A DNA stretch of 64,000 nucleotides from an uncultured virus (IMG/VR IMGVR_UViG_3300027724_000009) (taxonomy: Duplodnaviria; Heunggongvirae; Uroviricota; Caudoviricetes): IMG/VR virus record IMGVR_UViG_3300027724_000009. One strand, written 5' to 3'. The translations under genes were made by a program, and so were the position numbers. This document shows, piece after piece, positions 4,581 to 64,000 of the stretch. The first letter of the stretch is position 1. The number at the start of each line of letters is the position of its first letter. Under the pieces are notes generated by a model that was not told where the DNA came from, did no database searches, and saw nothing but the letters and a program-made list of their open reading frames with translations.

Positions 4581-4626
4581 TTTGTATAATTGTATAAATT
4601 AAGTATTTTTGTCTAAGCAACAAAAC
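4581..4626 (+). promoter_or_regulatory. Bacteroidota-type promoter with TTGTATA tandem repeat
   Basis: TTTGTATAATTGTATAAATT..TATTTTTG..AGCAACAA. Confidence 0.6.
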
Positions 4627-4635
4627 AAAGTTTAT

Positions 4636-5469
4636 ATGAGTTACAGAGTACCAACACCAAACACAAATTTCGACCTTGAAACAACAGGAACGAACGTATT
4701 AACTGATAGAATCGTACAGATTGCATTGGTTTACACAAACAGTATCGGAATGAGAGATACAAGAAATATCCTCATTAATCCCGGAATACCTATACCGGTA
4801 GATGCAACAGACGTACATGGCATAACAGATGAAATGGTGAAAGATGCATCGACGTTTCCTGAAATAGCAAACGACATCTTTCAGTACATGGTAGATGTTA
4901 CGTTGATAGGCTTCAATATTAAGAATTTTGACATTCCATTACTGAAAGAGGAGTTCAAAAGATGTGGTATTGATTGGGATGTACCAAAAGATATTATCGA
5001 CGTGTTCCAAATGGATAAAGCATTGTACCGTCGTACCCTGAATAACGTTTACAAGCAACATACCGGTTTAGATATTGACGGAGCGCATGATGCTTTAAAT
5101 GATGTATATGCAGTAGATGTAATCCTGCAGTCCATGGTTAAATATAATAATACCGAAGTACAAAATTTTTTAACAACAAGTAAGGACCAGGTGGATATAG
5201 CCGGTAAGTTCTTATTGGATGAGGTAGGAAATATCGTATTCGGATTTGGTAAGTTTCAGGGTAATCAAGTAAGTAAACATATCCAATACGTGCAATGGAT
5301 GAACCAACAGGAATTTTTTACTGCAGATACAAAAGACTTCTGTAAAAAAATATTGGCCGGAGCATTTCGTGTTGAGCAGCTGACAAATAAACCTGCAGAG
5401 GTAGTGGATGAGGCCAAAGAAAAAATATTGAGAGATTTAGAAAACGCTGAAGTAGATCCGTTCGCATGA
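4636..5469 (+). CDS. DEDDh 3'-5' exonuclease (DNA Pol III epsilon-like)
   Basis: FDLETTG, VHGITDEMV, GFNIKNFD, AHDALND; C-terminal FGFGKFQG. Confidence 0.9.
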   Translation: MSYRVPTPNTNFDLETTGTNVLTDRIVQIALVYTNSIGMRDTRNILINPGIPIPVDATDVHGITDEMVKDASTFPEIANDIFQYMVDVTLIGFNIKNFDIPLLKEEFKRCGIDWDVPKDIIDVFQMDKALYRRTLNNVYKQHTGLDIDGAHDALNDVYAVDVILQSMVKYNNTEVQNFLTTSKDQVDIAGKFLLDEVGNIVFGFGKFQGNQVSKHIQYVQWMNQQEFFTADTKDFCKKILAGAFRVEQLTNKPAEVVDEAKEKILRDLENAEVDPFA

Positions 5470-10680: not shown

Positions 10681-10724
10681 TTGCATAATTGAAAAATAGT
10701 ATTAAATTTGCAGTAGCAACAACA
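10681..10724 (+). promoter_or_regulatory. Bacteroidota-type promoter with TAGCAACAAC leader
   Basis: TTGCA..TAAATTTG..TAGCAACAACA. Confidence 0.65.
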
Positions 10725-10726
10725 TA

Positions 10727-10927
10727 ATGGTAGAAATCAGTATCACCAAATTAGTAGTATTATTTTCAAAGTTGTTAGTTGCAAAGTTCATTGAAGATAG
10801 GATATTAGGAAAGAAAAAGTTTGGATGCTATACACAGTACATCATGCTAACAATTTACGTTGTATTTTGGTTGCAGGTTATTTATTTTGTAGTGTTCTTT
10901 TACATTAACTTTCTTTTTAGCTTATAG
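10727..10927 (+). CDS. Small hydrophobic protein
   Basis: Directly after promoter; C-terminal TM. Confidence 0.45.
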   Translation: MVEISITKLVVLFSKLLVAKFIEDRILGKKKFGCYTQYIMLTIYVVFWLQVIYFVVFFYINFLFSL

Positions 10928-12377: not shown

Positions 12378-12378
12378 T

Positions 12379-13937: not shown

Positions 13938-14668
13938 ACATCAAAGTAGTAATACCGACTGCAGGTAGATACGATACCATTACCACACATAAGGTGGTTG
14001 ATAACTGCATACTATGTGTACCTGAAGAACAGGAAAAATTCTACCGAGTATCGTGCCCGGACACAGAAATAGTTACGCATCCTCCACTTGTTGGATTAGG
14101 AGCAAAACGTAATTGGATATACGAAAAGTTCGGCCATGTGTTTATGTTAGATGATGATTGCAAAGGAATGCGTAGAATGTACTCTGAAAATAAGGAGCAG
14201 GATAAAGTGGATAGCAAAACTGCATACGATTTAATTCAGTTCACAGGCAATATGTGCCACATGGCAGGGTTGTATGTATTCACGTTCAACAGATACGCTC
14301 AACCTAAAAACTATCATGGACATTCACCGATTAAACTGAAATGATTAGTGTACGGCCAAGCTATGGGTTGGTTGGCAGGTTCCAAGATTAAGATGCGGAA
14401 TGACATCAAATGCAATAACGATATTTATCTGTCATTGATGAATGCGTACAAGCATAGAATGATATGGCAGGACGAGCGTTTCACGTTTGACTTCTATGGA
14501 TATGGCGGCAATAAAGGTGGCCTGGCATCCGTCCGTACTGAAGAAGTGGAGAAAAATGATTTTCTTTTACTTAAAGAAATGTTTGGTGATGCAGTTGCTA
14601 CCAAAAAAGGAACGTGGGATAAGAAACCTAAAAAGCCTTATGAATTAGTAATTAAATTGCCGTATTAA
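13922..14668 (+). CDS. GT-A fold glycosyltransferase (TAGT/GREB1-like) interrupted by in-frame TGA at 14342-14344
   Basis: VVIPTAGR, GLGAKRNWI, FMLDDD, C-terminal NND and GNKGGL; ORFs 13922-14344 and 14348-14668 share a frame. Confidence 0.7.
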
Positions 14669-14671
14669 GAC

Positions 14672-16391: not shown

Positions 16392-16420
16392 TCAAGTATT
16401 TATATTTTAATAAAATAACG

Positions 16421-16464
16421 TTTGCATATAGCCAAACTTTTGTTTAAATTTGTGGTAGCAACAA
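16421..16464 (+). promoter_or_regulatory. Promoter with TAGCAACAA leader
   Basis: TTTGCA..TAAATTTG..TAGCAACAA. Confidence 0.65.
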
Positions 16465-16479
16465 TTAAAATTTGAAACT

Positions 16480-17094
16480 ATGCACTTAACAACAGTACAA
16501 GGGTATGGGTTCTTTGAATGCAGTTCTGCATTTCAAAAATCAATACGTCGTGGCGACGAAACAAACGCACTCTACTTTGCAGTAGAACTCTTTAATTCAG
16601 GGTACGATGAGTACGTTTGGAAACGTATGAAAGTAATCACCTCTGAAGACATTGGATTAGCCGAGCCGAATGCTCCTGCTATCATTCAATCGTTATACGA
16701 AATGTATAATGATGCGAAAGCCAAAAAGCACGAAAAAATGCCTCAACGTTTGCACTATGTACACGCAATTATGTATTTGTGCAGATGCAAAAAATCACGT
16801 CTAATTGATTGGACCATGATTGCATTATGGAGAGAGCATAAATTAGAGAAACGTGAAGTTCCGGATTTTGCATTTGATATGCATAACGCAAAAGGCAAAC
16901 AGAAAGGCAGAGGTATCGACCATTTCTACAATGACGGTACGGAGTTGACAAATCACGTTCCGCAGGACGGTGAAGAAGAATGGAAACAGAAAGCATGGAA
17001 ACTCCATAAGGAGCATCCATTACCCGACCTGCCTGTAAAAAAAGAGAAAGGCAAAAAGAATGATTTATTTGATAACCAAAATTCGGAGGTATGA
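16480..17094 (+). CDS. Stand-alone MgsA/RarA C-terminal-like domain protein
   Basis: SAFQKSIRRGD..ALYF...SEDIGLAEP; no Walker A. Confidence 0.75.
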   Translation: MHLTTVQGYGFFECSSAFQKSIRRGDETNALYFAVELFNSGYDEYVWKRMKVITSEDIGLAEPNAPAIIQSLYEMYNDAKAKKHEKMPQRLHYVHAIMYLCRCKKSRLIDWTMIALWREHKLEKREVPDFAFDMHNAKGKQKGRGIDHFYNDGTELTNHVPQDGEEEWKQKAWKLHKEHPLPDLPVKKEKGKKNDLFDNQNSEV

Positions 17095-18320
17095 AAACGG
17101 TAAAAGACATCATTAAAAAAATCATTAAAGACGGTGAAGTTATAGGAGTTAATGGCCGGGTACTGACTTACATTAGTAAGGAAAATGACGGAACGTATGC
17201 AGTTGTGATGCATAATGATTTGGTGCCAAAATTGCGATCGTATGCAACAGAACAACAGTTGATTAAATGGTTCTGCAATACATCAGAAACATTACCTGTA
17301 AGAACTATCGAACAGATGATAACTGAAGTGAATGACGCAGGTATCTATTACATTAATGAGCAAGGAGTTTACATCAAATATATCAGTGAGAACAGGTGGA
17401 ATGACGGAAAGCACAGAGCGGTAGTTTGTGGCCCTGGTATAAGAGCATCAGGAAACAATGCTCCGTATAGTGATGAGCAGCTGATTAAATGGTTCGGTAC
17501 AACTAAGTGGAGGTTAGCAGGTTTACTCTGCAATGAGTTATCAGATAACCGTCACACAGTTACAGAATTTCAGGATTACATTGCACAAATAGATTATAAT
17601 GATGTAAGTCCTATTGACGATGTAAGATACGATAAAATCAAGCCATTGACAGGCAAAATAACCGAGGTTATTCAATCGGATGCTATAATACCTGCCTACA
17701 AGCCTAAAAAGGTTAAAAATGTGGTGCCAAAGCCTGAAAAACGTAAGAACTACAAAGGCACTCCAAAGGAACAGTTACCGCCTGAAGTTATCACATACCG
17801 GAAAGGATTGAGCGCTCAACAGGTTTATAAACGTCGTATTAATATCCTCGATAGATTGGATTTCGACAAAGTGAAAGCATTATTTGATGCAGTCATTGAG
17901 GCACAGGATGCATACGAATACGATTTATCAGAGGAGGGTATTATTGCCAAAAATATCAATAAGACTACAAAGGAATCGTTCTGCAGATATGGTGACGCAA
18001 ATCACATTACACGAACTATCAGAGTAAAATATCTAAATGATAAGGTAGGAGTTGCATTAGATGTTCAGGCATATTGGATGCAGGAGAATTTCAATAAAGA
18101 TATTGAGCCGGATGATTTAGCTGCATTCATTACTAATTATGAGAATGGTGCAGAAGATTATCCGCTTTATGCAAAGATTGATGAGTGTAAACAAGAATGG
18201 AAAAATTACACAGGAATTAACTATGACAGTAAGTTCATTAAACATTACATTAACCGAAAATTGAACGCTGAATTTAAAGAGTATTCTAAAGTTCCTGCAG
18301 GTGATGGTGATATATTCTAA
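17091..18320 (+). CDS. Hypothetical protein with duplicated N-terminal module
   Basis: YISKEN..EQQLIKWF repeated as YISEN..DEQLIKWF. Confidence 0.65.
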   Translation: MKTVKDIIKKIIKDGEVIGVNGRVLTYISKENDGTYAVVMHNDLVPKLRSYATEQQLIKWFCNTSETLPVRTIEQMITEVNDAGIYYINEQGVYIKYISENRWNDGKHRAVVCGPGIRASGNNAPYSDEQLIKWFGTTKWRLAGLLCNELSDNRHTVTEFQDYIAQIDYNDVSPIDDVRYDKIKPLTGKITEVIQSDAIIPAYKPKKVKNVVPKPEKRKNYKGTPKEQLPPEVITYRKGLSAQQVYKRRINILDRLDFDKVKALFDAVIEAQDAYEYDLSEEGIIAKNINKTTKESFCRYGDANHITRTIRVKYLNDKVGVALDVQAYWMQENFNKDIEPDDLAAFITNYENGAEDYPLYAKIDECKQEWKNYTGINYDSKFIKHYINRKLNAEFKEYSKVPAGDGDIF

Positions 18321-18335
18321 AAAAAAGTGAGAGAG

Positions 18336-18400
18336 TTTGCATATTTGCAAACTCTTTTGTATTTTTATCGTAGCAACAACAAATTTTTTAACCAATAAAT
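18336..18400 (+). promoter_or_regulatory. Promoter and leader TAGCAACAACAAA..AACCAATAAA
   Basis: Same architecture as the other phage promoters. Confidence 0.6.
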
Positions 18401-18408
18401 TAAAAGTC

Positions 18409-20028
18409 ATGTTTGACAAAGAATTTTACCCTACTCCAAAGCATGTAATTACTAAGATGTTACAGCCTTATATGGACCAAAAAAAGCGAGTTTATGGTGG
18501 AACTGCAAATTACTTTACCGACATATCAATACTCGAACCGTCTGCCGGTAAGGGCGACATCTTAGACTACATTAACGACAAGTTTTCAGGTAAGAGAGCC
18601 GGATTGCGGTACTACTGCATTGAACGCAACCAAGATTTGACGCATATCCTGAATGAGAAAGACTACCGAGTAATAGCGCATGATTTCCTGCAGTATTCCG
18701 GAGATTACTATTTCGATTTTATCATTATGAACCCTCCGTTCTCGAATGGCGACGAGCACCTGCTGAAAGCGTGGGACGTATTACGTGGAGGAGATATCGT
18801 ATGCTTACTGAATACCGAAACGTTAACCAATCCGAACACAGAGCGGAAACAACATCTGCTGAAGCTGATTGAAAAGCATGGTAGTTTTGAGCATTTGGGA
18901 GCGGTATTTGCTGACAGTGAACGGCCAACCAATGTAAGAGTGAGCATGGTACGCCTCCACAAAGTTGAGGAGGAAAGTGCATTCAACTTCAAATTTGAGA
19001 AAGTTACAAAGGAATCACAGTTCGACCTGAATGAAGATATTTTGGGTAACGAAATTGCCCGAAAGGATTTGGTAGGTAACATGATGCTTCAGTACGACGA
19101 ATTGCGTAAGGCATACATTGACTACAATAAAGCAAGGAGCCGGGTATCATTCTACTCCAATGGCCTTATGACACAGTATTGCAGTATTTTCAAAGACGTA
19201 ATTGATAAACTTAATCAGAATACATTACGTGGTGACTATAATCAGTTTTGCGATCTCGTCAAAAAAGAGATATGGCGTGTGATATTTGGTAAGATTGATA
19301 TGGATAAATACATGACGCATGATGTACGTCAAAACTTCTCCAAGTACATTGACAAACAGGGAGCAATGGATTTTACCAAAGAGAACGTGGCCCAGGTTGT
19401 AGAAATGCTATTCACCAACAGATTTACGATTTTAGATAAGGCCGTAATTGATGTATTCGACATCTTTACAAGGCACCACAAAGAAAACCGGTATCTAATC
19501 GAGGGTTGGAAAACGAATGACAAATGGAAAGTAAACCGTAAGGTTATCCTGCCATATTACGTTAAGTACGGTGAGTACATGAGCCAACATGACCTGAAAC
19601 AGTTTGGAGATAAATTCAGTATCTCATATCACAGAGCGAGCGAGTACACCGACATTGATAAAGTGATGTGCTACATTACAGGGAAAGATTTTAAAAACTG
19701 CACTACTATTTCGGAGGCATTAAAAGATAGTTTCCAAAGGTTAGGCCATGTGAAAAATGAGAAGTTTGACAATACCTGCACAAGCACGTTCTTTAATATC
19801 CGATTTTTCAAAAAAGGTACAATACACATAGAATTTCGGGATGCTAAGTTGTGGGAGCAGTTCAATCTTATGGCGTGTGCCGGGAAGAAGTGGTTACCGG
19901 AAACAGAGCAACGTGAATACGATGCTAAAATGCAGTATCGTGAAGAACCTGAACTAACTATAACACCGAAAATGATTGAGGCAAATTTGGAGCCAATAAC
20001 GGCACAATTCGAGTTGAATTTTGTATAA
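18409..20028 (+). CDS. Class I SAM-dependent DNA methyltransferase with DUF4942-like C-terminal domain
   Basis: FYPTP, ILEPSAGKGD, IIMNPPF; FNIRFFKKGTIHIEF. Confidence 0.85.
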   Translation: MFDKEFYPTPKHVITKMLQPYMDQKKRVYGGTANYFTDISILEPSAGKGDILDYINDKFSGKRAGLRYYCIERNQDLTHILNEKDYRVIAHDFLQYSGDYYFDFIIMNPPFSNGDEHLLKAWDVLRGGDIVCLLNTETLTNPNTERKQHLLKLIEKHGSFEHLGAVFADSERPTNVRVSMVRLHKVEEESAFNFKFEKVTKESQFDLNEDILGNEIARKDLVGNMMLQYDELRKAYIDYNKARSRVSFYSNGLMTQYCSIFKDVIDKLNQNTLRGDYNQFCDLVKKEIWRVIFGKIDMDKYMTHDVRQNFSKYIDKQGAMDFTKENVAQVVEMLFTNRFTILDKAVIDVFDIFTRHHKENRYLIEGWKTNDKWKVNRKVILPYYVKYGEYMSQHDLKQFGDKFSISYHRASEYTDIDKVMCYITGKDFKNCTTISEALKDSFQRLGHVKNEKFDNTCTSTFFNIRFFKKGTIHIEFRDAKLWEQFNLMACAGKKWLPETEQREYDAKMQYREEPELTITPKMIEANLEPITAQFELNFV

Positions 20029-27094: not shown

Positions 27095-27374
27095 CTCCAC
27101 AAAAAAAAGAGAGATATAAGATGTAGTATTCAGAACTTTCGTTTTTAGAAATATTATTCAAAACATGATAGAGCATTTTTGAACCTGAAATATGGTACAA
27201 AAATGCTTTTTTTATTTTCCTTAACAATTTAGTAACAGTTTGTAACGAGTTGAAATAAGCGTACTTATGATTTTATTTTGAAAATAATGGTATTATAATA
27301 GTGCAGGATATTGCACAAAGCAAATATCCTGCATAGATTTACACTATCAAATTGAAATAACAACAAAAATAAAC
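27095..27374 (+). repeat. Island-leading regulatory element, copy 1 (similar to 40219-40510)
   Basis: Shared AAAAAGAGAGATATAAGATGTAG and GGATATTGCACAAAGCAAATATCCTGCATAGATTTACACTATCAAATT. Confidence 0.85.
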
Positions 27375-27394
27375 ACTTTAAAAAAACAGCAATT

Positions 27395-37737: not shown

Positions 37738-39699
37738 ATGACAAACTTATCAGGAACTCCCGGAGCATCTACCAACATATCAGATGTAGGCGTAATACCG
37801 GCAAATAGCAATAAAGGAATTATTTGTGTAAACATCATTGCCAAAAGAGGAAAGTTAGGTAAGCAATATTTGATTACCAATGCTACCGAATTGAAAAGAA
37901 TATTAGGTGGTGCGATTCCCGGGAATCAAGACTTCTACAAGTTGTCAAGAGGCTTAAACAAAGGAGCAAAGTTGCGAGTAGCGAGAGTTTTTCATTTGAC
38001 AGATCAGGACGACGCAACTACCGTTGAGGGTGACGTTGCAACAGTTACGGCCACACAAAACGTTACTGAAGTATTAGCGAGAGCAAATGCAAAATTGACT
38101 ACCGTTCCGAGCGGTGACGTTGTGGTTCAGTATGTAGTGAATACAGTAAGTGGTGAGGTAGTGATTGCATCGTACACAATTCCGACATCAGGTAGTCCAA
38201 CGGTAGCAACTGTAAATACGGCATTATATACTGCGGTAAATGCAGGTACAGGTACGCATGGTTATACTGCTACAATCGACGGTGGTTACATCGTTACGGT
38301 GATTGCACCAACCGGTTCCGGAGAAGATGCGAACAGATATTTCCTGAACGTGGTACAGACAGGAGCAACTGCAGGAACAGTAGCCGGTAATGGCCGTTTT
38401 GCAGGTGGTGTTACAGGTGTTGACGCATCGGTGGAAATTGATGCTGAAGCAGTAGGCTCCGGTTACAATGGTACAGTAATTGAAATCGTAAAATCAATTT
38501 CAAATCAGCCGGGTAAAGTTGACATCAAAGTAACGTTACCCGATAACGATTTACCAATACAAGTGAGCAACTATGACAGAGTGCTAACATCTGAAACGTG
38601 TGCATCTTTGAACGGACAAATCGGTGTAGTAGCATTCGACTTCAGTTCAATGAATGTAGGTAATATGTTACCTATTGGTACGTTTATTTTAGCAGACGGT
38701 ACACAGGACGTATCATTGATTAATGATGCTGATTTTATCGGTAGTCCAATATCTAAAAACGGATATCACTCATTCAATGACGTGAGTGACAGTATGCGTA
38801 TTTGGAACGTTTCAAAGCCTACACATACTGCTAATCAGGGATTGGTTGCATACGTTATGGCTCGTGGTGATATGCGCTGCAGAATTTATACTCCGTTAGG
38901 ATTAAGCATTGAAGGTATCACTGATTTCAGAAACGGTACCGGCTCATTCTCTCATCAGCCGATTGATTCTTTTTACGGAGATATGTGGTACACAGACATC
39001 GAAATAAACGATCCTGCAAATTCCTCTAATACAGGATATGTAATAAGCGGTATTGGCGACCAATTAGCTAACAGAACATTAGCAGACGATAAAGCAGGTG
39101 TTTGGATATCTGATTCCGGTGAAATGTTCGGTAAATTATTCGGTGTGAATGACGTGGCGATTAACTTCAAATCTCCTGCATACAAAGGTTATTACGACGA
39201 TTTGTATGAGGGTGGTGTGAATGCTATCGTAAATCATCCGACGTTCAAAATCACGAATTGGGGTAACAGAACATTGAACCTGAACCGTACCTCTTTATTG
39301 AGCAAAACAAACATTGCCGACCTGGTGGTTTATATTTCAAGAGAGGTAAAGCTGATTGCAGAGCGTATGTCTTTCAATCCGAATGATTTGGTTATGTTCG
39401 GAAGATTATACAGAAAGGTGCGTCCGTTCATTATCGACGAGTTGATTGCCGGTAGAGCAATCGAGGGTGGTACCGGCCCGAAATACGGTGAGGGAACATG
39501 GTGGCATTGGTTAGGCGACCAAAACGCTAAGAACCTGAATGAACTTCAGTTCAACACAAAGAGCGACGTAGATGCAGGTAAATATCGTGTTCGTTTTGCA
39601 TTCAAGCCGATTGCATCAAACGAATACATAGCTATCGACATTGCACCTGCAGATAGCGTAACTATTCAAAACATTCAACAATTATTAACAGTAAACTAA
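37738..39699 (+). CDS. Contractile tail sheath protein
   Basis: TPG N terminus, GVNAI, WGNRTL, FNPND, FKPIASNEYI. Confidence 0.9.
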   Translation: MTNLSGTPGASTNISDVGVIPANSNKGIICVNIIAKRGKLGKQYLITNATELKRILGGAIPGNQDFYKLSRGLNKGAKLRVARVFHLTDQDDATTVEGDVATVTATQNVTEVLARANAKLTTVPSGDVVVQYVVNTVSGEVVIASYTIPTSGSPTVATVNTALYTAVNAGTGTHGYTATIDGGYIVTVIAPTGSGEDANRYFLNVVQTGATAGTVAGNGRFAGGVTGVDASVEIDAEAVGSGYNGTVIEIVKSISNQPGKVDIKVTLPDNDLPIQVSNYDRVLTSETCASLNGQIGVVAFDFSSMNVGNMLPIGTFILADGTQDVSLINDADFIGSPISKNGYHSFNDVSDSMRIWNVSKPTHTANQGLVAYVMARGDMRCRIYTPLGLSIEGITDFRNGTGSFSHQPIDSFYGDMWYTDIEINDPANSSNTGYVISGIGDQLANRTLADDKAGVWISDSGEMFGKLFGVNDVAINFKSPAYKGYYDDLYEGGVNAIVNHPTFKITNWGNRTLNLNRTSLLSKTNIADLVVYISREVKLIAERMSFNPNDLVMFGRLYRKVRPFIIDELIAGRAIEGGTGPKYGEGTWWHWLGDQNAKNLNELQFNTKSDVDAGKYRVRFAFKPIASNEYIAIDIAPADSVTIQNIQQLLTVN

Positions 39700-40218: not shown

Positions 40219-40510
40219 CTCCACTCAAAAAAAAGAGAGATATAAGATGTAGCCTGAATACCAATGCAGATTTATCGTATTCAGAAATATTAATAAAAAC
40301 TACATAGAGAAAAAATCAGCCTATTTTCAAGCCTGAAAATGGTTTCTTTAAATTCCTTAACATTTTAGTAACAGTTCATAACAGATTGAAATAAGAGTAT
40401 TTACATTTTTATTTTGAAAATAATAGTATTATAATGGTGTGGGATATTGCACAAAGCAAATATCCTGCATAGATTTACACTATCAAATTAAAACAACAAC
40501 AAAAATAAAC
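40219..40510 (+). repeat. Island-leading regulatory element, copy 2
   Basis: Similar to 27095-27374. Confidence 0.85.
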
Positions 40511-40620
40511 GACATGACAACAAAGGAAGTATTTGAAGCATAAGCGAATACACGCCACAAATCGAAGTAACACAGGAAACAGATAAAAATCAATTACAAT
40601 TATTTTAAAAAATAAACACC

Positions 40621-43290: not shown

Positions 43291-43301
43291 AATTAGCAAC
43301 A

Positions 43302-43685
43302 ATGAAAGCAGTATTAAGTCAACAAAACGGTAGCAGTATGCATTCATACCACAATACAACAGGTATGCAAAAACCGGAGTTAAAAGCAGCCGAACAAAAG
43401 GCACAAAAACAGGACGTTCTCGTACTTCAGGTATTCAAGGACAACCGATTGAAAGACTTTACGCCATGCGAGGTGTATGAGTACATGATAAAAAAGGGTG
43501 TGATTAGCCGTAAGGTTCCTATCACTTCTATACGCAGAGCAATCAGCAATCTTACTGCAACAGGTAAGGAAGATTTAGAGAAACTGCCAGGCAAACGTGA
43601 GGGAGCATACGGCCAACCAAACAGGACGTGGAGGCTGAACAGAGTGAAATATAACGTCGCTGAACAAATGGAAATGTTTAATTAA
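43302..43685 (+). CDS. Winged-helix DNA-binding protein
   Basis: FTPCEVY...PITSIRRAISNLT..G. Confidence 0.65.
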   Translation: MKAVLSQQNGSSMHSYHNTTGMQKPELKAAEQKAQKQDVLVLQVFKDNRLKDFTPCEVYEYMIKKGVISRKVPITSIRRAISNLTATGKEDLEKLPGKREGAYGQPNRTWRLNRVKYNVAEQMEMFN

Positions 43686-49673: not shown

Positions 49674-50380
49674 TGAGCGCTTTCAGAGAATTTTTAGATA
49701 ACATGACAAGTGGAGGTTTGGAATACTTCGGTTTATACTATGGAAAGTATGAGGCATTGGTAGTAGATTGCGACGATCCTGAAAAACGTGGACGTTTAAA
49801 AATTTCCTGTCCGAGAATTTACGGCAATGAAAAATACGATAAGTGGGTTTATCCAAGTGGTTTATTTGCAGGTAAAAACTATGGTATGCACTTTATACCT
49901 CAAAATGGTGATGTTATCAGGCTTACATTCGACGGAGGTAACGTAAATTTCCCGGTGTGGGAGTACGGTTGGTGGCTGAAGTCAAAGAGCATTCAGATTG
50001 CCGACAAAGACATTTACTGCATTGTTACTCCGAAAGGACATAGTTGGGTAATTGATGAGAAAAATGACAGGATTTACTTCAGCTACAAAGACGGAAAGGT
50101 AATTGAAATCAAAGGACAAAAAATAAGTTTGGGTAAGAACGGAGGTTCTGCCGAGAAAGCAGCATTGGGTGAAACTCTAAAAAAACGTTTAGAGGAAATA
50201 TGCGATAATCAAAAAGATATTTGTGATGCAATGGTAGCCATGACAGTAACGTGTAATCCACCAGGTTCACCGTCAACAACGCCAATAAATAGTGCGTTAT
50301 TTGCACAATACGGAGCAAGAGCGACGACGATAAAATCACAGTTGATTGAAATACTATCTGAAGTCGTTACATTAGACTAA
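49673..50380 (+). CDS. Baseplate spike (gpV/Gp5 OB fold)
   Basis: DPEKRGRLKI, FIPQNGD.I..F.GG...P. Confidence 0.85.
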   Translation: MSAFREFLDNMTSGGLEYFGLYYGKYEALVVDCDDPEKRGRLKISCPRIYGNEKYDKWVYPSGLFAGKNYGMHFIPQNGDVIRLTFDGGNVNFPVWEYGWWLKSKSIQIADKDIYCIVTPKGHSWVIDEKNDRIYFSYKDGKVIEIKGQKISLGKNGGSAEKAALGETLKKRLEEICDNQKDICDAMVAMTVTCNPPGSPSTTPINSALFAQYGARATTIKSQLIEILSEVVTLD

Positions 50381-53942: not shown

Positions 53943-54641
53943 ATGGCATTAGTTGGCATATATAAAATAACGTCACCATCTAATAAGGTGTATATAGGTC
54001 AATCTGTCAATATATTAAATAGAAAAGCGTCTTACAAAAGACAAGATTGTAAAAAACAAGCAAAACTATATATGTCACTTTTGAAGTATGGTTTTGATAA
54101 ACACTCTTTTGATATTTTATGTTTGTGTGATAAAAGTGAATTAAACGAAAAAGAAAAATCATACATTTTAGAATATGATAGCTTTTTAAATGGTTTGAAT
54201 TTAACAAGTGGTGGTGAAAGTTGCAATGTGCGGTCAGATGAAACAAGGATGAAAATGAGTTTAGCACAAAAGCGTAACACCAAAAGTAAGGGACATAAAC
54301 ACACGGAAGAATCTAAAAAGCTAATGAGTGAAAATAGAAAAGGAAAAGTAATTAGCGAAACTGGTAGAAAAAATATGAGTTTGGTTCAACTTGGCAAAAA
54401 GATGTCAGATGAAACAAAGCAAAAAATTAGCGACAAATTAAAAGGAAAGAAAAAAAGCAAAGAGCAAATATTAAAGTTTAGTAAATCTATGATTGGAAAC
54501 ACAAATAGATTAGGCAAAAAAAAGACATTAGAGGAAAGATTAAAAATATCTAAAAGCAAAATGGGTAGTATAATTCCATTGGAAGTAAGAAATAAAATAT
54601 CATTAACATTAAAAAATAAATATCATGGCATTAGCAGCTAA
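53943..54641 (+). CDS. GIY-YIG homing endonuclease with NUMOD3 repeats
   Basis: GIYKIT....VYIGQS, LNLTSGG, HTEESKKLMS/SDETKQKIS repeats. Confidence 0.92.
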   Translation: MALVGIYKITSPSNKVYIGQSVNILNRKASYKRQDCKKQAKLYMSLLKYGFDKHSFDILCLCDKSELNEKEKSYILEYDSFLNGLNLTSGGESCNVRSDETRMKMSLAQKRNTKSKGHKHTEESKKLMSENRKGKVISETGRKNMSLVQLGKKMSDETKQKISDKLKGKKKSKEQILKFSKSMIGNTNRLGKKKTLEERLKISKSKMGSIIPLEVRNKISLTLKNKYHGISS

Positions 54642-57857: not shown

Positions 57858-58238
57858 ATGGAAACAGCAAATAATAATGAAATTTTACAAAAAACGTTTG
57901 AATACATAGTAGGTACAGACGATATTGCATTTGCAATAGCAGGTGTATTTTTTGTTGTTATAGGTTGTATTCTTTCAGTAACAATTAGAGCATTGAGAGT
58001 AGGTGTTAAGATGCCAGGTACTCCGAATAAATTCAGCAGCAGGTATATGTTTAAAGATAAAATTGCAGAATTATTATTAGGATTTGTATTAGCATGTATC
58101 TGTATGAGGTTATTCAATGATTGGATTGGAGCACAGGCCACAATGGGTTTAGGTTTCGTATTAGGTTTCTGCAACTACCGGTTGGCTAATCTAATACCGA
58201 AAGTATTTAAGTTTTTAATTGAAGATAAATTAAAATAA
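57858..58238 (+). CDS. Holin-like three-TM protein
   Basis: Three hydrophobic segments; context. Confidence 0.55.
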   Translation: METANNNEILQKTFEYIVGTDDIAFAIAGVFFVVIGCILSVTIRALRVGVKMPGTPNKFSSRYMFKDKIAELLLGFVLACICMRLFNDWIGAQATMGLGFVLGFCNYRLANLIPKVFKFLIEDKLK

Positions 58239-58239
58239 A

Positions 58240-60432
58240 ATGGCACAAAAGATTTTATGGAATTGGCAAGACGATGATTCAACCAAACATCTTAATCAGC
58301 GTACATTAGGTATAGTAGAGCCAGGGTTGTATCGTGGTTTTGATATAGACCTTTCAGATGTTTCAAATATAAAATTGGTTCAGACTGTAACAGGTGCAAC
58401 TATTGTGCTTACAGATTCTCCGGTATTCACCACAGAGCAGAGAGGAGTAGTGGTTACAAAGCAGGGAGTAGTGATACATGAGGACGATGTTGTTGTGTTG
58501 CCATTCACTCCAAATACGAGCGGAAATCCTCGAATAGATGTTGTGATAATGGAGCATGAATACGTGGACGTTATGGACGGTTCAAACGTGGTATATTCAG
58601 TATTGTTGGGTACTCCTGCAGGAACTCCGGTTGCTCCGACGTTGACAAGTCCCAAAACACAGACAATTTTAGGGTATCTGTACGTTCCAAACGGTGCAGA
58701 ATACATGGATGCTCCGGGAGTAGTATATACGAGAGCAGTAACTCCGAACTTTGCAGGTGACGGCAGTATAGCACATCAATATTTGCTGAATATCTTTTTA
58801 GGTATTATCGGAATGGTTCGTAATTGCGTATTGGATAATGTTGGTAACGACGATCCTGTATATTATTTCAGTTTGAACTTAAACAGTGCGCCGGCCGGTG
58901 CCGTAAACAAGGATGCAAATAATTTCATTCTCGATTATGGTTACACAGGTGGAATACAGAATGAGAATGTAAGGTTGCGTTACGTTGGCCCAGATGAGAA
59001 TTTAGGTGGTAAGGAAGTGACGATTTATACAAAACAGGAGTTGCGTATTGATTTTGGTTACGACATATTGCCGAGCGACGGTGATGCGACGTATTGCTAC
59101 ATTCCTGCAAATAGCGTTTTTGTACTTAAAAGCGTATCGAATACCTCTCCGGTAGTTACAGACAACAATAAGTGGGTATTGGTGAATGCACAAAGAGCAT
59201 CTGAAAACAGGAGCAACAATTTTACTGCATCGAATAAGTTTTCAGGTACCGTTACAGAAAATACAAAACAGATCACGATTGGTGACGACGGTAAAAGCAG
59301 TTCATTTACTGCAACTGACGGAAATATCCTGAAGATTACATCTATGGGTTCTCCGAGCACAGTAGGAGCCACATCTGTAACCGGTTTTAAGGCATTGCCG
59401 GTAGATACGATTATCAAAATTGATTTGTCGGATGCAGGTATTACGTTGGACCATGTAATTTTCAAAAATAATGACTTTGTAGCAAGTGGAGGCAATCTGC
59501 CAATTTACACAACAAATTCAGGTGATTTGGTAGTAAACAAAGGTGGTTGTGTTTGGTTGAAAGCGGAGGCTTCAGCATATCGTGTGGTGGCCGTTCAGGG
59601 AGAGAAGAAACATTACGACGGTTATTTTGTATTAGATAACTCTGCATTCAATGCATTATCGAAAACAATTACTGTAAATAATAGAAATAACTGTTTTAGT
59701 ATTTTAGTACCAACTGCAGGTAGTTTGGAGAATATTAACGTGGTAGATGATTATGGTGCGACGGTAGATGTTCGCCCAGGTACAATTATCAATATACGTT
59801 TCAAGCATATAGGAGGTTCTATTGCAAGTAGTGGAGGCGTATTGACTGCAGTTCCGTTCCTTATTTCACTCGAAAACACATCAAATATCCGTTCCAATGT
59901 GAGCGACTTTGGTTATATTAGTAGTTTGGGTAAATCGTTGTCAATTATAGACGACCAAATTTACGGAGAAAGCGGTGATGTGATTACGTTCAGAAAGACA
60001 GATACCGTTTGGGAAATAGTATCTGCAAATCGTGATGCGTACTATGCTCACAAGTTGAACGATAAGAAAATTGACAAAGGAGTAACGTGGCTAACTGCAG
60101 ACTTCACGCATTCATCTATAAGTCCGAGAGAGGCTTCACGTCCGGCTATGCGATTATGTAAAAACGATTTAGGAATGATGATTGTTGAGTTTTCATTTGG
60201 AGTTTCAGCAGATATCGCAGCAGGTACAATTATTGGACGTTTTGTTGGTGTATTAAATGGTTATGTTTGGAGTAAGGCAGTACCGGTTACTTATAAACAA
60301 AATGGAGTAGGATTTTCAATAGGTCATTTATCTTTTACAATAGGACCAACATTTCAGGATATGCAGATAATTGCACTTACGGCAATCCCGAATACATACG
60401 GAATTTATCAACCAATACTTTTAATTCCATAA
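58240..60432 (+). CDS. Tail fibre protein
   Basis: GLYRGF, NPRIDVVI..GTP..PVAP N terminus; beta-rich body. Confidence 0.7.
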   Translation: MAQKILWNWQDDDSTKHLNQRTLGIVEPGLYRGFDIDLSDVSNIKLVQTVTGATIVLTDSPVFTTEQRGVVVTKQGVVIHEDDVVVLPFTPNTSGNPRIDVVIMEHEYVDVMDGSNVVYSVLLGTPAGTPVAPTLTSPKTQTILGYLYVPNGAEYMDAPGVVYTRAVTPNFAGDGSIAHQYLLNIFLGIIGMVRNCVLDNVGNDDPVYYFSLNLNSAPAGAVNKDANNFILDYGYTGGIQNENVRLRYVGPDENLGGKEVTIYTKQELRIDFGYDILPSDGDATYCYIPANSVFVLKSVSNTSPVVTDNNKWVLVNAQRASENRSNNFTASNKFSGTVTENTKQITIGDDGKSSSFTATDGNILKITSMGSPSTVGATSVTGFKALPVDTIIKIDLSDAGITLDHVIFKNNDFVASGGNLPIYTTNSGDLVVNKGGCVWLKAEASAYRVVAVQGEKKHYDGYFVLDNSAFNALSKTITVNNRNNCFSILVPTAGSLENINVVDDYGATVDVRPGTIINIRFKHIGGSIASSGGVLTAVPFLISLENTSNIRSNVSDFGYISSLGKSLSIIDDQIYGESGDVITFRKTDTVWEIVSANRDAYYAHKLNDKKIDKGVTWLTADFTHSSISPREASRPAMRLCKNDLGMMIVEFSFGVSADIAAGTIIGRFVGVLNGYVWSKAVPVTYKQNGVGFSIGHLSFTIGPTFQDMQIIALTAIPNTYGIYQPILLIP

Positions 60433-60433
60433 T

Positions 60434-60985
60434 ATGACAAATTCAGAAAGATATACGGTAATTGAAAGAATCTATGCGAATGGAGGTATCTTTAATATCG
60501 ACGTGACAACAGGCCCGGTATTGACTTCAGAGGGAATTGTAATAGACGACGACGTTCAGTTATTTTTAATTGTTGTTGCGGTGGCAGCCGGTATTAATGA
60601 TGCAGATACAAATTTATTGTCGAAAATGAGTGCAAAGTTTGCTACTTTAACTGCAACATTGCCAACTTCTGTTTACATAGATGCAAAAGGTTGCAATAGC
60701 AATACCAATCCGGCAGTTGCAGATGCAGGGATATTCTACCTAAGTCCACAGATTTACGATAATGGCGTCGATCCTCCACAGACTTATAATTTCAATGTGT
60801 TGGTAGTAGATTTTCTGAACAATCACACAGGAATAACAAGATTAACAAGCGGTCACGAGTTGTTTCCGTACTTTGAGGAATACAGAGCAAACCTGCAGTT
60901 GGAAGTTTTAGAAAACGTAATTCCGATAAATTATATCATTTATCACGAAGATACTAACGAATATTTAATAGTAGAAATACTGTAA
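60434..60985 (+). CDS. Hypothetical protein
   Basis: ORF. Confidence 0.6.
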   Translation: MTNSERYTVIERIYANGGIFNIDVTTGPVLTSEGIVIDDDVQLFLIVVAVAAGINDADTNLLSKMSAKFATLTATLPTSVYIDAKGCNSNTNPAVADAGIFYLSPQIYDNGVDPPQTYNFNVLVVDFLNNHTGITRLTSGHELFPYFEEYRANLQLEVLENVIPINYIIYHEDTNEYLIVEIL

Positions 60986-61020
60986 AGTTGCACGATTGAA
61001 AAAAAAGCGTTACTTTTACA

Positions 61021-61125
61021 GTCAGCCGGTCGCTATTGGTTTCAAACTTTGTTGTTGCTAAATTACCTCGTATGATTCCCCCCCGGCACCGGTGAAAATG
61101 CATAGATTAATTCTATGCATTTTTA
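61021..61125 (+). ncRNA. Putative trans-acting small RNA
   Basis: Own promoter at 60988-61020, CCGGT/ACCGG stem, terminator AAAATGCATAGA..TCTATGCATTTT; antisense to leaders. Confidence 0.5.
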
Positions 61126-61175
61126 TTTTGTATAACCGTATAAATTACTATTTTTGTGTAGCAACAATAAAGTAT

Positions 61176-63206
61176 ATGCAAGATTTCACCGAATTATATA
61201 ACGGCCTGAATGCGTTTAGGGAGTTATTCAAGCAAAGAATTTTACCGGAAACTGAAGTTAGTATCAGTGCAAAATTTCTGCGTGGTATAGCGCAAAAAGA
61301 TTATAAAACATGGACTATTGACGAGGCGATACGGCTTCACAATATCATTAAACCATACGGCCTGAAGTTGAAACGTGTAGGGTTTGATATTAGCAAAATT
61401 CCTGTAATACAGATACAGTTATCAGTAGTGAACAGGGATAACGTGGTTCAGCCGGAGCAGAGGAGGCTTATCGGTACCGACGGTAATTTCTTTATCATTA
61501 CGTTTCCGTACCGTAAAGAATTGTACGATGCAGTCAAAAATATACCGAGAGCCAGGTTCATGTACGATACAAAGCGGTGGATAGTTCCGTTGGAATTTGC
61601 GAAAGAGGTAACACATTTTGCCAATGGATATGAGTTTCAGATAGGTGAAAGAGCCATGAACTTAATCAATCTGCAGTACGAGAGCGGTGAGAATATGGAG
61701 TTGTCATACATGACGGAGTACATAGAGTTGAATATTCCACTAAAGAAAAAACTATATCCGTATCAAACCGTTGGTGGTGACTATGTGCGACGGAATAAGC
61801 GTGTGGTTATTGCCGACCAAATGCGACTAGGTAAAACCATGCAATCAATAGCCGGTATTTTGGTTACAAACTCATTTCCCTGCATAGTTATCGTTCCGAA
61901 ATCTTTGAGGCTGAATTGGCAGGATGAGTGGCATGATTGGACAGATAGAAAAGCCATTGTATTAAACCATAAAAACGTAAAGAAATTGCCGGAACTGATA
62001 CGTCAGGGTATGGCAGATGTCGTTATTACGAATTACGACGGCGTACAGTCATTCCTGATAGATGATTTGAAAGAAGTCAACATAACTACCGGCCCGAATG
62101 CAGGAACGAAATATCACAATGCAAAAGGGAATGATTTATGCAATCTTTTTAATTCAGCAATCATTGACGAGGCACATCATTGCAGGAACAAGCAGACGAT
62201 ACGGTACAAGTGTGTGCGTGAAGTATTCAAAGGTAAAGAGGTTCGTATATGCTTAACCGGTTCTCCGATAGTGAAAGGCCCGAAAGATTTGGCCGCACTC
62301 TTTGAACTGATAGGCCGTATTGAGGAGTTCGGAGGATATGACAAATTCATTAAGAAGTACAAAAAAATAGATGCAAAAACATTAGACGACAAAGGTAAGC
62401 AACTGCAGGAACTTCAGGAGTTGAATACAAAAATGCGTTCATTGTGTTTCATCCGTCGGGAACGGCACCAGGTTAATGAGCAGATATCGGAGAAGTTCAG
62501 AAAGGTGATACGAGTGGATTTGGATAATCAGAGCGAGTACGACCATGCTTGGTTATCACTTCAGTCATACATGGCAGAGAGAGCATTCACCACTTCACAG
62601 ATATCGAAAGCATTACAGGCTGAAATGTTGGTTAAAATGGGATTGCTGAAGCAAATTTCTGCGAGAGGTAAATCAGCATCCGTCAAGGAGTTTGTATCTG
62701 AATTGATAGATAACGGAGAGAAAGTGATTATCGGTTGTTGGTACAATGATACCGTTCAGTATTTCAAAGATGCTTTCCGGGAGTATGGAGCCGTTACTAT
62801 CTGCGGCAGAATCGACGGCCATGATATGAAACCTGAAGAAATCCATGAGAACAAGAAAAAGTTTCAGACAGACGATAATACGAAAGTTATTATCATTACT
62901 TATGGAAAGGGTGGTGAGGGACATACATTGAGCAAGGCATCAAGTTTGGTTATGGTTGAATTAGGTTGGACATACAAAGACCAGGCACAAATGGAGGACA
63001 GAGGCATTGCCGTTAATAAAACTGAAGATTTTAACGTGTATGTATTTCTCGGTAAAGATACATTGGATGAGGACACGTATGAGATAATTGATAAACGACG
63101 TGTGATTGAGAAAGAGGCCGTCGGTGGTTCAGAGCACATTGAGAACAGTGAAGAATCTGTAATTTCAGCTATGAAAGATAAAATTCTGAAAAAAATATCG
63201 AAATAG
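61176..63206 (+). CDS. SNF2-family helicase (HARP/SMARCAL1-like)
   Basis: LYPYQ, ADQMRLGKT, IIDEAH, LTGSP, GEGHTL, QMEDR. Confidence 0.92.
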   Translation: MQDFTELYNGLNAFRELFKQRILPETEVSISAKFLRGIAQKDYKTWTIDEAIRLHNIIKPYGLKLKRVGFDISKIPVIQIQLSVVNRDNVVQPEQRRLIGTDGNFFIITFPYRKELYDAVKNIPRARFMYDTKRWIVPLEFAKEVTHFANGYEFQIGERAMNLINLQYESGENMELSYMTEYIELNIPLKKKLYPYQTVGGDYVRRNKRVVIADQMRLGKTMQSIAGILVTNSFPCIVIVPKSLRLNWQDEWHDWTDRKAIVLNHKNVKKLPELIRQGMADVVITNYDGVQSFLIDDLKEVNITTGPNAGTKYHNAKGNDLCNLFNSAIIDEAHHCRNKQTIRYKCVREVFKGKEVRICLTGSPIVKGPKDLAALFELIGRIEEFGGYDKFIKKYKKIDAKTLDDKGKQLQELQELNTKMRSLCFIRRERHQVNEQISEKFRKVIRVDLDNQSEYDHAWLSLQSYMAERAFTTSQISKALQAEMLVKMGLLKQISARGKSASVKEFVSELIDNGEKVIIGCWYNDTVQYFKDAFREYGAVTICGRIDGHDMKPEEIHENKKKFQTDDNTKVIIITYGKGGEGHTLSKASSLVMVELGWTYKDQAQMEDRGIAVNKTEDFNVYVFLGKDTLDEDTYEIIDKRRVIEKEAVGGSEHIENSEESVISAMKDKILKKISK

Positions 63207-63207
63207 A

Positions 63208-63251
63208 TTTGTATAGTTGTATAAATTAATTAGATTTGCATTAGCAACAAC
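63208..63251 (+). promoter_or_regulatory. Promoter with TTGTATA tandem repeat and TAGCAACAAC leader
   Basis: TTTGTATAGTTGTATAAATT..TAGATTTG..TAGCAACAAC. Confidence 0.65.
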
Positions 63252-63296
63252 TTCTTATGAAACTTTTTATTTTTTCACCAATAAACTTTTTTATTT

Positions 63297-64000
63297 ATGG
63301 AACAGATCGTTCAAGAACAACAATGGAACATTGTTGAGGAAACAGATGCGTTGAAGATAGCATCTATTTTAACAGTAATCTTCGGAGATCCCGGCATGGG
63401 AAAGACATCACTTTCAATGCAGAGTGAAGAATCAATTTTATTGGACTTTGACGACGGATTAAAGCGTTCAACAAAACGTAAACGTGCAGTGCAAATGCGT
63501 ACTTTTGCAGGAGCATTGGATTTTATCCGTTCGGAGAAATTTAAGGAATTGAAACCACGTACCGTAATTCTCGATACAGGTGGTACGTTGTTGGACAACT
63601 ACATTGCACACTATGTAATCGAAAATGAAACTGCCAACAAAAAGAAAGGTGGAGGCTTATCACTTCAGGGTTATGGTGCATTGAAAGAGGTATTCAGTCA
63701 GTTTATTAATGAATTGAAACGAATGCAGATTGACATTGTTATCGTATGCCATACGGAACAGTACAAAGACGGTGAAAATCTGCGTTTCCGTCCGAAAATG
63801 ACAGGTGGTAGTTACGATATTCTTATGCAGGTAGCTGATTTGGTTGGTTACATGGAAAGTAAGAATGAGAAACGTACACTGAATTTCAATCCTACTGACC
63901 GTCACATCGGTAAAAATGCACCAAACTTTGCTAATTTCATCATTCCGCATGCAGAAACTATTGAGTTTGACAATTTTTTAGGCCGTATCATTGCTGATGC
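63297..64000 (+). CDS. AAA_24/Sak4-like ATPase (truncated by window end)
   Basis: Read manually: FGDPGMGKTS, LLDFDDG, VILDT, IVCH, ADLVGY. Confidence 0.85.
   Translation, partial: MEQIVQEQQWNIVEETDALKIASILTVIFGDPGMGKTSLSMQSEESILLDFDDGLKRSTKRKRAVQMRTFAGALDFIRSEKFKELKPRTVILDTGGTLLDNYIAHYVIENETANKKKGGGLSLQGYGALKEVFSQFINELKRMQIDIVIVCHTEQYKDGENLRFRPKMTGGSYDILMQVADLVGYMESKNEKRTLNFNPTDRHIGKNAPNFANFIIPHAETIEFDNFLGRIIAD

Follow-up and report, generated by a model that had tools for sequence, protein, structure and literature searches.

The window analysed here is a 64,000-nucleotide stretch of DNA from an uncultured tailed phage, referred to below as WIN. The region between the stop codon of its last late gene (60985) and the promoter of an SNF2 helicase operon, within 60986-61175, contains an inverted copy of a nine-base tag, TAGCAACAA, that occurs in sense orientation in the leaders of several other operons. 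A preliminary description, made from the letters of the window, proposed that this interval encodes a trans-acting small RNA or guide RNA, antisense to a leader motif shared by many phage promoters. The question is whether the inverted copy belongs to such an RNA, acts only on the gene next to it, is a binding site in DNA, or is a by-product of leader duplication. The feature is real, and it is conserved in related phages, whose comparison provides most of the evidence below.

The phage and its relatives

The window comprises most of a contractile-tailed phage genome of ~70 kb (G+C 37%), with nearly all genes on the + strand. PHROG and Pfam matches define a replication and DNA-modification block at about 0.2-22 kb and a virion block (portal, protease, major head, sheath, tape measure, baseplate, endolysin) that extends to 60985; the SNF2 helicase gene (ATG 61176), followed by an AAA_24/Sak4-like gene, lies 3' of the virion block. 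A tRNA/tmRNA search of the whole window found none. Promoters in the window are of the Bacteroidota type (-33 TTTG, -7 TAnnTTTG), the -7 element corresponding to the Bacteroidota consensus presented in a study of Bacteroides (PMC7366714). Relatives of the phage were found in Bacteroidota MAG contigs, and phage DNA was detected in activated-sludge runs.

Searching a phage collection by DNA matched no close cultured relative, and the nearest record (G001) represents another part of the genome, with no match to 60400-61800. The best match of the helicase protein, at 33% identity, is an uncultured faecal phage record, and the best named match is a Bacteroides phage (32%). Related phage records and loci are given G- and L-numbers here. 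About 60 helicase relatives were collected as proteins; the first helicase-based scans returned mostly distant SNF2 helicases (about 25-30% identity), and useful relatives were obtained only via a clade-restricted alignment, A2, which gave 14 IMG/VR loci and two MAG contigs. Whole records were compared for G002, G005-G009 and G004. Viral contigs were also searched with the DNA pattern TTGTTGCT...TTTG...AGCAACAA, which matched at least 119 stretches (123 among the matches listed). Nearly all of the matches listed are chance occurrences inside genes, the real ones being L165, L277, L240 and L203 only.

A non-coding unit upstream of the helicase operon

The interval can be divided into the following parts.

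60988..61018, + strand: putative small-RNA promoter (-33-like TTG at 60988-60990, 20-nt spacer, -7-like box TACTTTTA at 61011-61018)
61025..61093, + strand: stem 1 around a 57-nt loop, formed by GCCGGT (61025-61030) and ACCGGT (61088-61093) with GCU/GGC as an extension; present in both the MFE and the centroid structure
61034..61060, + strand: anti-leader segment, with core TTGTTGCTA at 61052-61060 and second block GGTTTCAAA at 61038-61046
61078..61084, + strand: C7 run, within a pyrimidine (UUCC-like) patch 8-25 nt 3' of the core
61094..61129, + strand: predicted terminator hairpin, 13 pairs, A+U-rich, with arms that include AUGCAUAGA and UCUAUGCAU, followed by UUUUUAUUUU

The anti-leader segment reads TATTGGTTTCAAACTTTGTTGTTGCTA. 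The -7-like box is a relaxed version of TAnnTTTG and lies 14 nt before stem 1, which was also picked up by a hairpin descriptor and has equivalents of unrelated sequence in seven other phages. On the + strand, 61021-61129 has a predicted folding energy of -33.3 kcal/mol (z -5.5; 0/200 shuffles as good); the minus strand folds less well (-28.2 kcal/mol, z -3.7). The core is predicted to lie at or near the apex of the inner loop, with a mean probability of being unpaired of 0.51, compared with 0.40 for the whole RNA. The C7 run is present as first described, and a UUCC-containing patch, read from the sequences, occurs 3' of the core in 6/8 of the elements described below, with UUCU in the other two.

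A promoter and terminator of its own had been claimed for the unit. Both calls depend on the Bacteroidota consensus (TAnnTTTG) and on folding; a generic sigma-70/terminator scan of 60500-61600 flagged neither, reporting 0 terminator-like sites and no promoter-like site on the + strand. The scan demands at least three G-C pairs, and the terminator hairpin is A+U-rich. A minus-strand promoter had been said to be absent, and no TAnnTTTG box was found on the minus strand of 61060-61540. The description of the unit as free of ORFs does not hold strictly, since a 49-aa minus-strand ORF (60954-61103) and + strand ORFs of at most 21 aa overlap the core; what does hold is that no ORF is conserved across the eight phages. 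No ORF longer than 51 aa covers the core in any of them, strand and length are inconsistent, and G008 has only a 9-aa ORF there.

RNA-run contigs (X15, X16, X19 and X20) aligned over 58000-64000 cover the neighboring genes and leave 61015-61615 uncovered, contigs being a form of data in which small RNAs cannot appear. A 10-nt identity between the terminator arm and a repeat at 27k/40k was attributed to chance, since around twelve 10-mer matches of this kind would be expected.

The leader tag and its complementarity to the unit

Six copies of TAGCAACAA lie on the + strand of the window (10714, 16456, 18371, 43294, 61159 and 63242) and one on the minus strand, at 61052-61060, within the unit. 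These seven matches compare with 1.10 expected, and 0/100 dinucleotide shuffles reach seven. The tagged leaders, and the promoter adjacent to the unit, are as follows.

4614..4638, + strand: leader TAAGCAACAAAACAAAGTTT of the RNase_T/DnaQ-like exonuclease operon, 2 nt past the -7 box; ATG 4636
10714..10729, + strand: leader TAGCAACAACA of a 66-aa gene, 3 nt past the -7 box; ATG 10727
16456..16482, + strand: leader of the MgsA-like ATPase, TAGCAACAA...TTTGAAAC; ATG 16480
18371..18411, + strand: leader of the DUF4942 methyltransferase, matching the reverse complement of 61034-61060; ATG 18409
43293..43304, + strand: tag TTAGCAACAATG, touching the start codon of a 127-aa tail-module gene, with no promoter box upstream
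61127..61156, + strand: helicase-operon promoter (-33 TTTG at 61127-61130, -7 box TATTTTTG at 61149-61156)
61159..61178, + strand: SNF2 helicase leader, opening with TAGCAACAA at 61159-61167; start codon 61176
63241..63299, + strand: leader TTAGCAACAAC of the AAA_24/Sak4-like gene, 3 nt past the -7 box; ATG 63297

The copies at 10714, 16456, 18371, 61159 and 63242, together with the variant at 4615 (TAAGCAACAA), lie 2-4 nt 3' of a TAnnTTTG box with a -33 TTTG upstream, and would thus form the first bases of their transcripts. The leaders of two late operons also bear CAA runs.

The pairings first proposed were recomputed and agree in detail. The reverse complement of 61034-61060 matches the methyltransferase leader (18371-18397) at 24/27 positions, and 61046-61060 pairs with 61159-61173 over 15 bp (14 Watson-Crick and one G:U). 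The other named copies (10714, 16456, 43294 and 63241) were all located, and 4615 pairs with the loop by way of a 2-nt bulge. Exact complementary runs of 9-13 nt connect the segment with seven leaders. The second block is complementary to the leaders at 16456 and 18371, so the match is bipartite in these (9+8 nt at 16456, 13+3+8 at 18371), as it is at 4615 (7+8 with the 2-nt bulge). The best-matching leader is the distal one at 18371, not the adjacent one at 61159.

Scanning whole genomes by RNAduplex (36-nt query) is not specific. The top match in WIN is intragenic (28633, -33.0 kcal/mol), and the hits are dominated by G+C-rich chance duplexes; leaders are present among the top 12 windows in WIN, G006, G009 and L291 and absent from them in G002, G008, L292 and G004.

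Conservation of the unit in related phages

Units of similar build were found in eight phages, WIN and seven relatives of ~70 kb, whose helicases are 43-50% identical: WIN, G002, G008/G003, G004, G006, G009, L292 and L291. G003 is a 94%-identical relative of G008, and L323 is a near-copy of L292; both carry the unit. The stems are unrelated in sequence from phage to phage (AGGGGUGCU/AGCACCCCU, CUAUCCUCCC/GGGAGGAUAG, CUGCGCUC/GAGCGCAG, CCGGAAC/GUUCCGG, GCGCAA/UUGCGC and GCUGUGC/GCACAGC) and their complementarity is kept. Each encloses a loop of 30-57 nt containing (U)UUGUUGUUGC(U/A) or a variant (summary consensus UUGUUG(C/A)(U/A)), and all invariant columns of an eight-way MAFFT alignment fall within this core, the stems remaining unaligned. 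The stem of G004 has 13 pairs and depends on five G:U pairs, which are possible on this strand only.

All eight elements lie on the + strand and end either in a hairpin with a U-run or in a second terminator hairpin after the loop stem. In G002, G008, L292 and G006 the U-run directly follows the loop-bearing stem; in WIN, G009 and L291 a separate, ordinary terminator hairpin stands behind it. A descriptor requiring a T-run and a stem of 6 bp or more around the core, devised after the elements had been seen, fits 7/8 of them, compared with 49/647 core occurrences in unrelated loci and 19/204 elsewhere in the clade genomes. Four of the eight elements have a perfect TAnnTTTG box within 55 nt upstream, where the background is 0.028 per element; the regular expressions used found no -7 box in G006 or G008. 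G003 and G008 agree completely in the element window (100% identity), whereas their flanks, taken in 100-nt windows, mostly show 86-97% identity (100% is reached in two others as well).

A tagged leader lies a short distance past the unit in 7/8 phages (WIN 108 nt, G002 98, G008 85, L292 92, G009 103, L291 114, G006 161). In G006 the neighboring genes differ and the helicase gene is about 38 kb away; a tagged leader still adjoins the unit. What may be a second unit of G008, identical in seed, lies on another scaffold, far from the first. An occurrence of TGTTGCTA ahead of a terminator in G002 (G002r 52049, 11 nt after a stop codon) was judged to be possibly due to chance. The 28-kb record G004 has the hairpin and no copies of the tagged leader. 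The complete relatives G005 and G007 (helicase identity 38-40%) lack the system; their leaders bear other A/C-rich repeats, (U/G/A)AAACAC four times in G005 and CTCTCAAYTATA in G007, for which a search revealed no convincing mirror hairpin. An integrase gene two genes upstream of the L292 unit is the one hint of the role in lysogeny that had been suggested, and no integrase was found among the 40 window proteins of one scan or the 30 of another.

Position and orientation of the tag

Across 10 genomes, the sense 7-mer of the tag lies in start windows (-40 to +25, making up 7-9% of the sequence) in 34/104 occurrences, and the inverted 7-mer in 1/70. Enrichment of the sense 7-mer is significant genome by genome in six of them (binomial p 0.036 to 1e-4). 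In G002, AGCAACAA occurs in 12 sense and six antisense copies, and a control word in none. The only inverted intergenic copy in a hairpin context is the unit itself.

The tag in WIN closely follows the -7 box. In G002, G008 and L292 it lies 11 to >20 nt past the box and in many cases within 0-2 nt of the ATG; two copies fall inside codons 2-4. The distance to the promoter thus varies in these relatives and the start codon remains close, so the tag moves with the start region of the mRNA rather than with the promoter. As judged from its placement in these sequences, the tag is an element of the leader, and hence of the mRNA, not of the promoter. The sharing of a tag first described for many phage promoters is upheld, with its extent reduced to about 6-9 early and replication leaders and its location shifted from promoter to leader.

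Co-variation of loop and leaders

In several genomes whose leaders differ from those of WIN, the loop differs with them. In L291 the leaders read AUCAACAAC(U) and the loop (A)GUUGUUGAU; in L292 and L323 they read AAGCAACAACUA and the loop UAGUUGUUGCUU. In G008, 6/8 leaders read GCAACAAU (also written GCAACAAUAA), and the loop, UUAUUGUUGC, has an A at the corresponding place (seed UUAUUGUUG). The pairs involved change from G:C to U:A in L291, from C:G to U:A in G008 and from A:U to U:A in L292. Covariation between the RNA and its targets in related phages, which had been suggested as a check, is thus seen as compensatory changes at three positions.

At leader position +8, opposite a loop G, the leaders have C 19, U 9 and A 6 times (n=34), and opposite the loop A of G008 they have U 6, A 2 and C 0 times. 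This pattern matches expectation, since G may pair with C or U and A with U only; Fisher's test for C versus U, loop G versus loop A, gives p = 0.004, a value that overstates the evidence because the leaders are paralogues. More generally, counts of this kind are not independent, as leaders within a genome are paralogous and the phages are related. In 6/7 genomes the longest Watson-Crick match of the leaders is with the loop of that same genome, which is the best in just 3/7 once G:U pairs are counted.

Bipartite matches are also found outside WIN. In G006, 5/6 leaders combine GCAACAA(C)(A) with A(4-7)CCA, facing the loop UGGUUUUUUUGUUGUUGC, and in G009 the second block is ACUUAAA in 3/6 leaders. 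Bipartite complementarity with bulges of variable length is tolerated by RNA duplexes. One conserved leader position does not follow the pairing: the loop base facing the conserved A before GCAACAA is itself A in both G006 and G009, so this A must be kept for another reason, perhaps as the transcription start or as a ribosome contact.

Alternative explanations

The main rival to a trans-acting RNA operates in cis. The hairpin would terminate the late operon or a short upstream transcript, and in RNA that reads through, the loop would fold back on the leader ~100 nt downstream; the first early gene would then have its start region hidden in read-through RNA, only transcripts from the proper promoter would be translated, and there would be no trans regulon. 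Such an insulator would explain why a tagged leader lies 85-161 nt past the unit in 7/8 phages, even in G006 with its different neighbors, where the adjacent leader pairs over 18 nt if two G:U pairs are allowed. It is nevertheless unlikely. The perfect -7 boxes directly upstream of 4/8 elements point to a dedicated transcript, and the best complement in WIN is distal (24/27 at 18371; the adjacent leader pairs over 15 bp). The loop, moreover, fits features common to all leaders of a genome, the possible second unit of G008 shares its seed at a distance, and an RNA that pairs in cis could equally pair in trans.

Two further explanations are a DNA operator and an inert by-product. As an operator, TAGCAACAA would be recognised by a transcription factor of the phage or its host at or near the points where transcription begins, and the inverted copy would serve as an extra site, for example in looping. 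Co-variation does not in itself separate an RNA from a DNA site, because a DNA site read both ways would co-vary alike, and a drifting protein specificity would also make all copies change together. A repressor would be well placed in WIN, G006 and G009, whose tag, 2-5 nt past the -7 box, overlaps the expected transcription start, and the 107 bp from 61056 to 61163, centre to centre, place the inverted copy about ten helical turns from the helicase promoter. An orientation-independent protein site, which the preliminary description had named as the finding that would speak against an RNA, should occur in both orientations at regulated promoters; the tag at gene starts is instead sense-only but for one occurrence. 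In G002, G008 and L292 it is displaced from the -7 box towards the ATG, sometimes into the first codons, and the single inverted intergenic copy always sits within an RNA-type hairpin with a U-run. Complementarity also spans 17-27 nt with variable bulges, and in the +8 pattern a loop G faces leader C or U and a loop A faces U only (G008: U 6, A 2). An operator is accordingly very unlikely. We give equally little credence to an inert by-product, in which the tag is an A/C-rich (CAA-repeat), translation-friendly leader and the inverted copy a decayed promoter-leader duplication lodged in a terminator loop. The near-identity with the 18371 leader over 27 nt does resemble a duplication, the A/C-rich leader repeats of G005 and G007 are of other kinds and lack an obvious mirror, and the two late-operon leaders carry CAA runs too. 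Against this, the element is kept in eight phages with helicases of 43-50% identity, in which the stems have turned over fully and the loop core has been retained; the loop-leader changes are compensatory; G003 and G008 share the element at 100% identity amid diverged flanks; and it has candidate promoter boxes of its own.

Proposed function

On balance, the unit probably encodes a trans-acting antisense sRNA that represses an early regulon defined by its leaders, as judged from comparison of the sequences. Conservation of the unit, co-variation and tag orientation all back the earlier proposal of one + strand sRNA antisense to the leader of several operons; the suggestion of a guide RNA found no support. 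We infer transcription of the putative sRNA, its pairing in vivo, the resulting repression and its timing.

According to the proposed mechanism, 61011-61129 would be the gene of a roughly 100-nt + strand phage small RNA. Host RNA polymerase would initiate a few bases past the Bacteroidota-type -7 box, the stem would keep the large loop open, and the A+U-rich terminator hairpin would form the 3' end. The loop would display UUUGUUGUUGCUA, with up to 27 nt around it, as the complement of the leader tag (U)AGCAACAA(C/U)A. Tagged early and replication operons include those of the exonuclease, ATPase, methyltransferase, SNF2 helicase and Sak4-like protein, among others, and the duplex would cover an A/C-rich, unstructured stretch 0-46 nt upstream of the start codon. 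In Bacteroidota, translation initiates independently of Shine-Dalgarno pairing, and very few mechanisms of sRNA action have been described. Ribosomes of such Shine-Dalgarno-poor hosts may need the A/C-rich leader stretch unpaired, so that its occlusion would lower the translation, and probably the stability, of the whole early set together. Since the unit comes after the last virion gene in the same orientation, late transcripts that read into it would raise the level of the sRNA, and might in this way bring about a late shut-off of early protein synthesis. Two observations reported for Bacteroides and its relatives accord with this mechanism: Bacteroidetes mRNAs lack a classical Shine-Dalgarno sequence and rely on adenines upstream of the start, and GibS, a Bacteroides sRNA, uses a conserved single-stranded seed to pair with start regions (both stated in PMC7366714).

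If real, the system would be an RNA counterpart of the protein-based early shut-off of T4, with a putative sRNA matched to most early and replication operon leaders of a roughly 70-kb phage. To our knowledge, the phage antisense RNAs studied so far each act on one gene or one operon, and a literature search of articles returned no paper on the tag motif or on a regulon-wide anti-leader phage RNA. The unit would also represent a natural case of seed-target co-evolution, open to compensatory mutations, and offers a handle on gene timing in uncultured activated-sludge Bacteroidota phages, on the role of A/C-rich leaders in ribosome recruitment, and on possible RNA-based exclusion among related phages.

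It is tempting to speculate, although we hold the idea to be unlikely, that an anti-leader RNA family exists in Shine-Dalgarno-poor Bacteroidota phages, in which a CAA-rich tag and a mirror-loop sRNA co-evolve, time early shut-off, silence incoming phages with the same tag and define immunity groups. Co-varying tag/loop pairs are AGCAACAA/UUGUUGCU, AUCAACAA/UUGUUGAU (the latter being the seed of L291) and ...CUA/UAG.... Were the idea true, whichever phage was resident or had arrived first would use its sRNA to silence the early genes of any newcomer with the same tag, and divergent tag/loop pairs would constitute RNA-based immunity groups, as c4 does for P1/P7, but regulon-wide.

Comparison with known systems

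The closest functional parallel is the c4 RNA of phages P1 and P7, to which the CI RNA of satellite phage P4 is related. The c4 RNA is encoded immediately upstream of its target and is processed from the operon transcript. Like c4, with which it shares this adjacency in 7/8 phages, the unit in WIN carries loop sequence complementary to phage leaders, 0-46 nt ahead of the start codon (9-13 nt exact, up to 24/27). In c4, complementary stretches placed in loops are thought to block translation near the ribosome-binding region, as outlined in a review (PMC12197685). The unit differs in having its own putative promoter box and terminator in place of processing from an operon transcript, in having 6-9 dispersed operon leaders as candidate targets rather than one antirepressor operon, and in belonging to a host phylum without classical Shine-Dalgarno sequences. 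Rfam 15 gave 0 matches over the whole window at the gathering score, and over 60950-61200, with E values up to 10, five weak and unrelated matches (the best to InvR, with 20.6 bits where the gathering score is 60), none of c4 type. The unit would thus act like c4 yet lies outside the c4 family by sequence and structure model.

GibS of Bacteroides thetaiotaomicron comes from the same phylum and is likewise an A+U-rich RNA, a class for which extended seeds are proposed in PMC7366714. Unlike the unit, it is host-encoded, with metabolic targets and a seed at its unstructured 5' end, and the two have no sequence relation.

Coordinated control of many early messages is also known from T4. RegA is a translational repressor and RegB an endoribonuclease, and the T4 motifs are Shine-Dalgarno-related. 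The likeness to the unit lies in a short start-region motif that marks many early mRNAs for coordinated later inactivation, as set out in two papers (PMC3014915, PMC1702504); the effector here, in contrast, would be a putative RNA and not a protein.

Terminator-loop and 3'-end-derived sRNAs of enterobacteria resemble the unit in carrying regulatory sequence in or next to a terminator hairpin at an operon end, and a role of terminator loops in base-pairing is indicated in one such account (PMC11979758). Those RNAs are host-encoded and associated with Hfq, in contrast to the unit, with its loops of 30-57 nt and the phage's own leaders as candidate targets. Loops of this length with conserved sequence also set the unit apart from a plain late-operon terminator, which has a short G+C-rich stem and a small loop. 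Three features of trans-encoded sRNAs are present: an intrinsic terminator on the same strand (8/8), a non-coding sequence, and a seed that is conserved and co-varies while the scaffold around it varies.

Sequence and gene neighbours of the predicted small RNA in related phages

The predicted small-RNA unit was compared across eight elements, those of the window and seven related genomes or contigs. Behind the core, the loop segment complementary to the tag that opens early and replication mRNA leaders, six of the eight carry a UUCC-like pyrimidine patch at a distance of 8-25 nt, and the remaining two carry UUCU. The window's version of this patch is the C7 run at 61078-61084. The genes near the unit include the following:

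L284:6351-6749 (-), genome G002: stand-alone receiver-domain response regulator (Pfam Response_reg, E 2.5e-15)
L316:2366-2749 (-), genome G008: stand-alone receiver-domain response regulator (Pfam Response_reg, E 7.9e-19)
L308:4174-4659, genome G006: Zeta_toxin/AAA_33-type kinase-like protein, first gene after the unit
L292:2-808: tyrosine integrase, two genes upstream of the unit of this contig

In both G002 and G008, the response-regulator gene lies two genes upstream of the phage's predicted unit. In G006, the SNF2 helicase gene is not the next gene after the unit; the neighbours differ, but a tagged leader is still found downstream.

An intergenic region of G008 (reverse strand, approximately 50030-50190) has UUUAUUGUUGCUUUG in a single-stranded stretch, preceded by a pair of short hairpins and followed by a G+C-rich terminator with a U-run. 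This is possibly a second small RNA, with a seed identical to that of the first unit.

Two relatives, G005 and G007, lack the AGCAACAA tag and have different leader repeats instead. The G005 leaders (reverse strand, approximately 38591-38625 and 43328-43360) carry (U/G/A)AAACAC heptamers, four in tandem, abutting the ATG, while the G007 repeat is CTCTCAAYTATA, found at 14002, 30418, 36477 and other positions. A mirror hairpin was sought for the leader repeats of these two genomes, and none was found in either.

Other features of the window

198-20028: dense DNA-modification cluster, also encoding two ParB_N-domain proteins, a sulfotransferase-like protein and a DUF4942 methyltransferase
198-1013 region: N6_N4 MTase gene, in the cluster
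1434-2084: MT-A70 methyltransferase gene, in the cluster
13922-14344: TET-associated glycosyltransferase, in the cluster
15291-16391: UDP-galactopyranose mutase, in the cluster
27264-27375 and 40400-40515: near-identical intergenic module of approximately 110 nt, ahead of two late operons
53943-54641: GIY-YIG-type homing endonuclease gene, inserted among baseplate and tail-fibre genes

The density of modification genes suggests that the phage DNA is hypermodified. The N6_N4 MTase and MT-A70 genes have an identical stretch in common at their 3' ends and in the sequence just beyond (1-110 and 1970-2080), visible as repeated entries among the -7 boxes.

Both copies of the repeated module contain a hairpin, GGATATTGC / GCAAATATCC, followed further on by AACAACAAAAATAAAC. 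The module, a candidate late promoter/leader, includes a CAA run that is complementary to the predicted small-RNA loop over 9-10 nt.

Lifestyle of the clade

Besides the integrase gene near the L292 unit, there is a 38%-identical relative (L322) at one end of a Crocinitomicaceae MAG contig of 172 kb. A unit of the L292 type is present in a Bacteroidota MAG contig (L323, 6280-6460), directly before the helicase region of that contig. Some members of the clade may be temperate.
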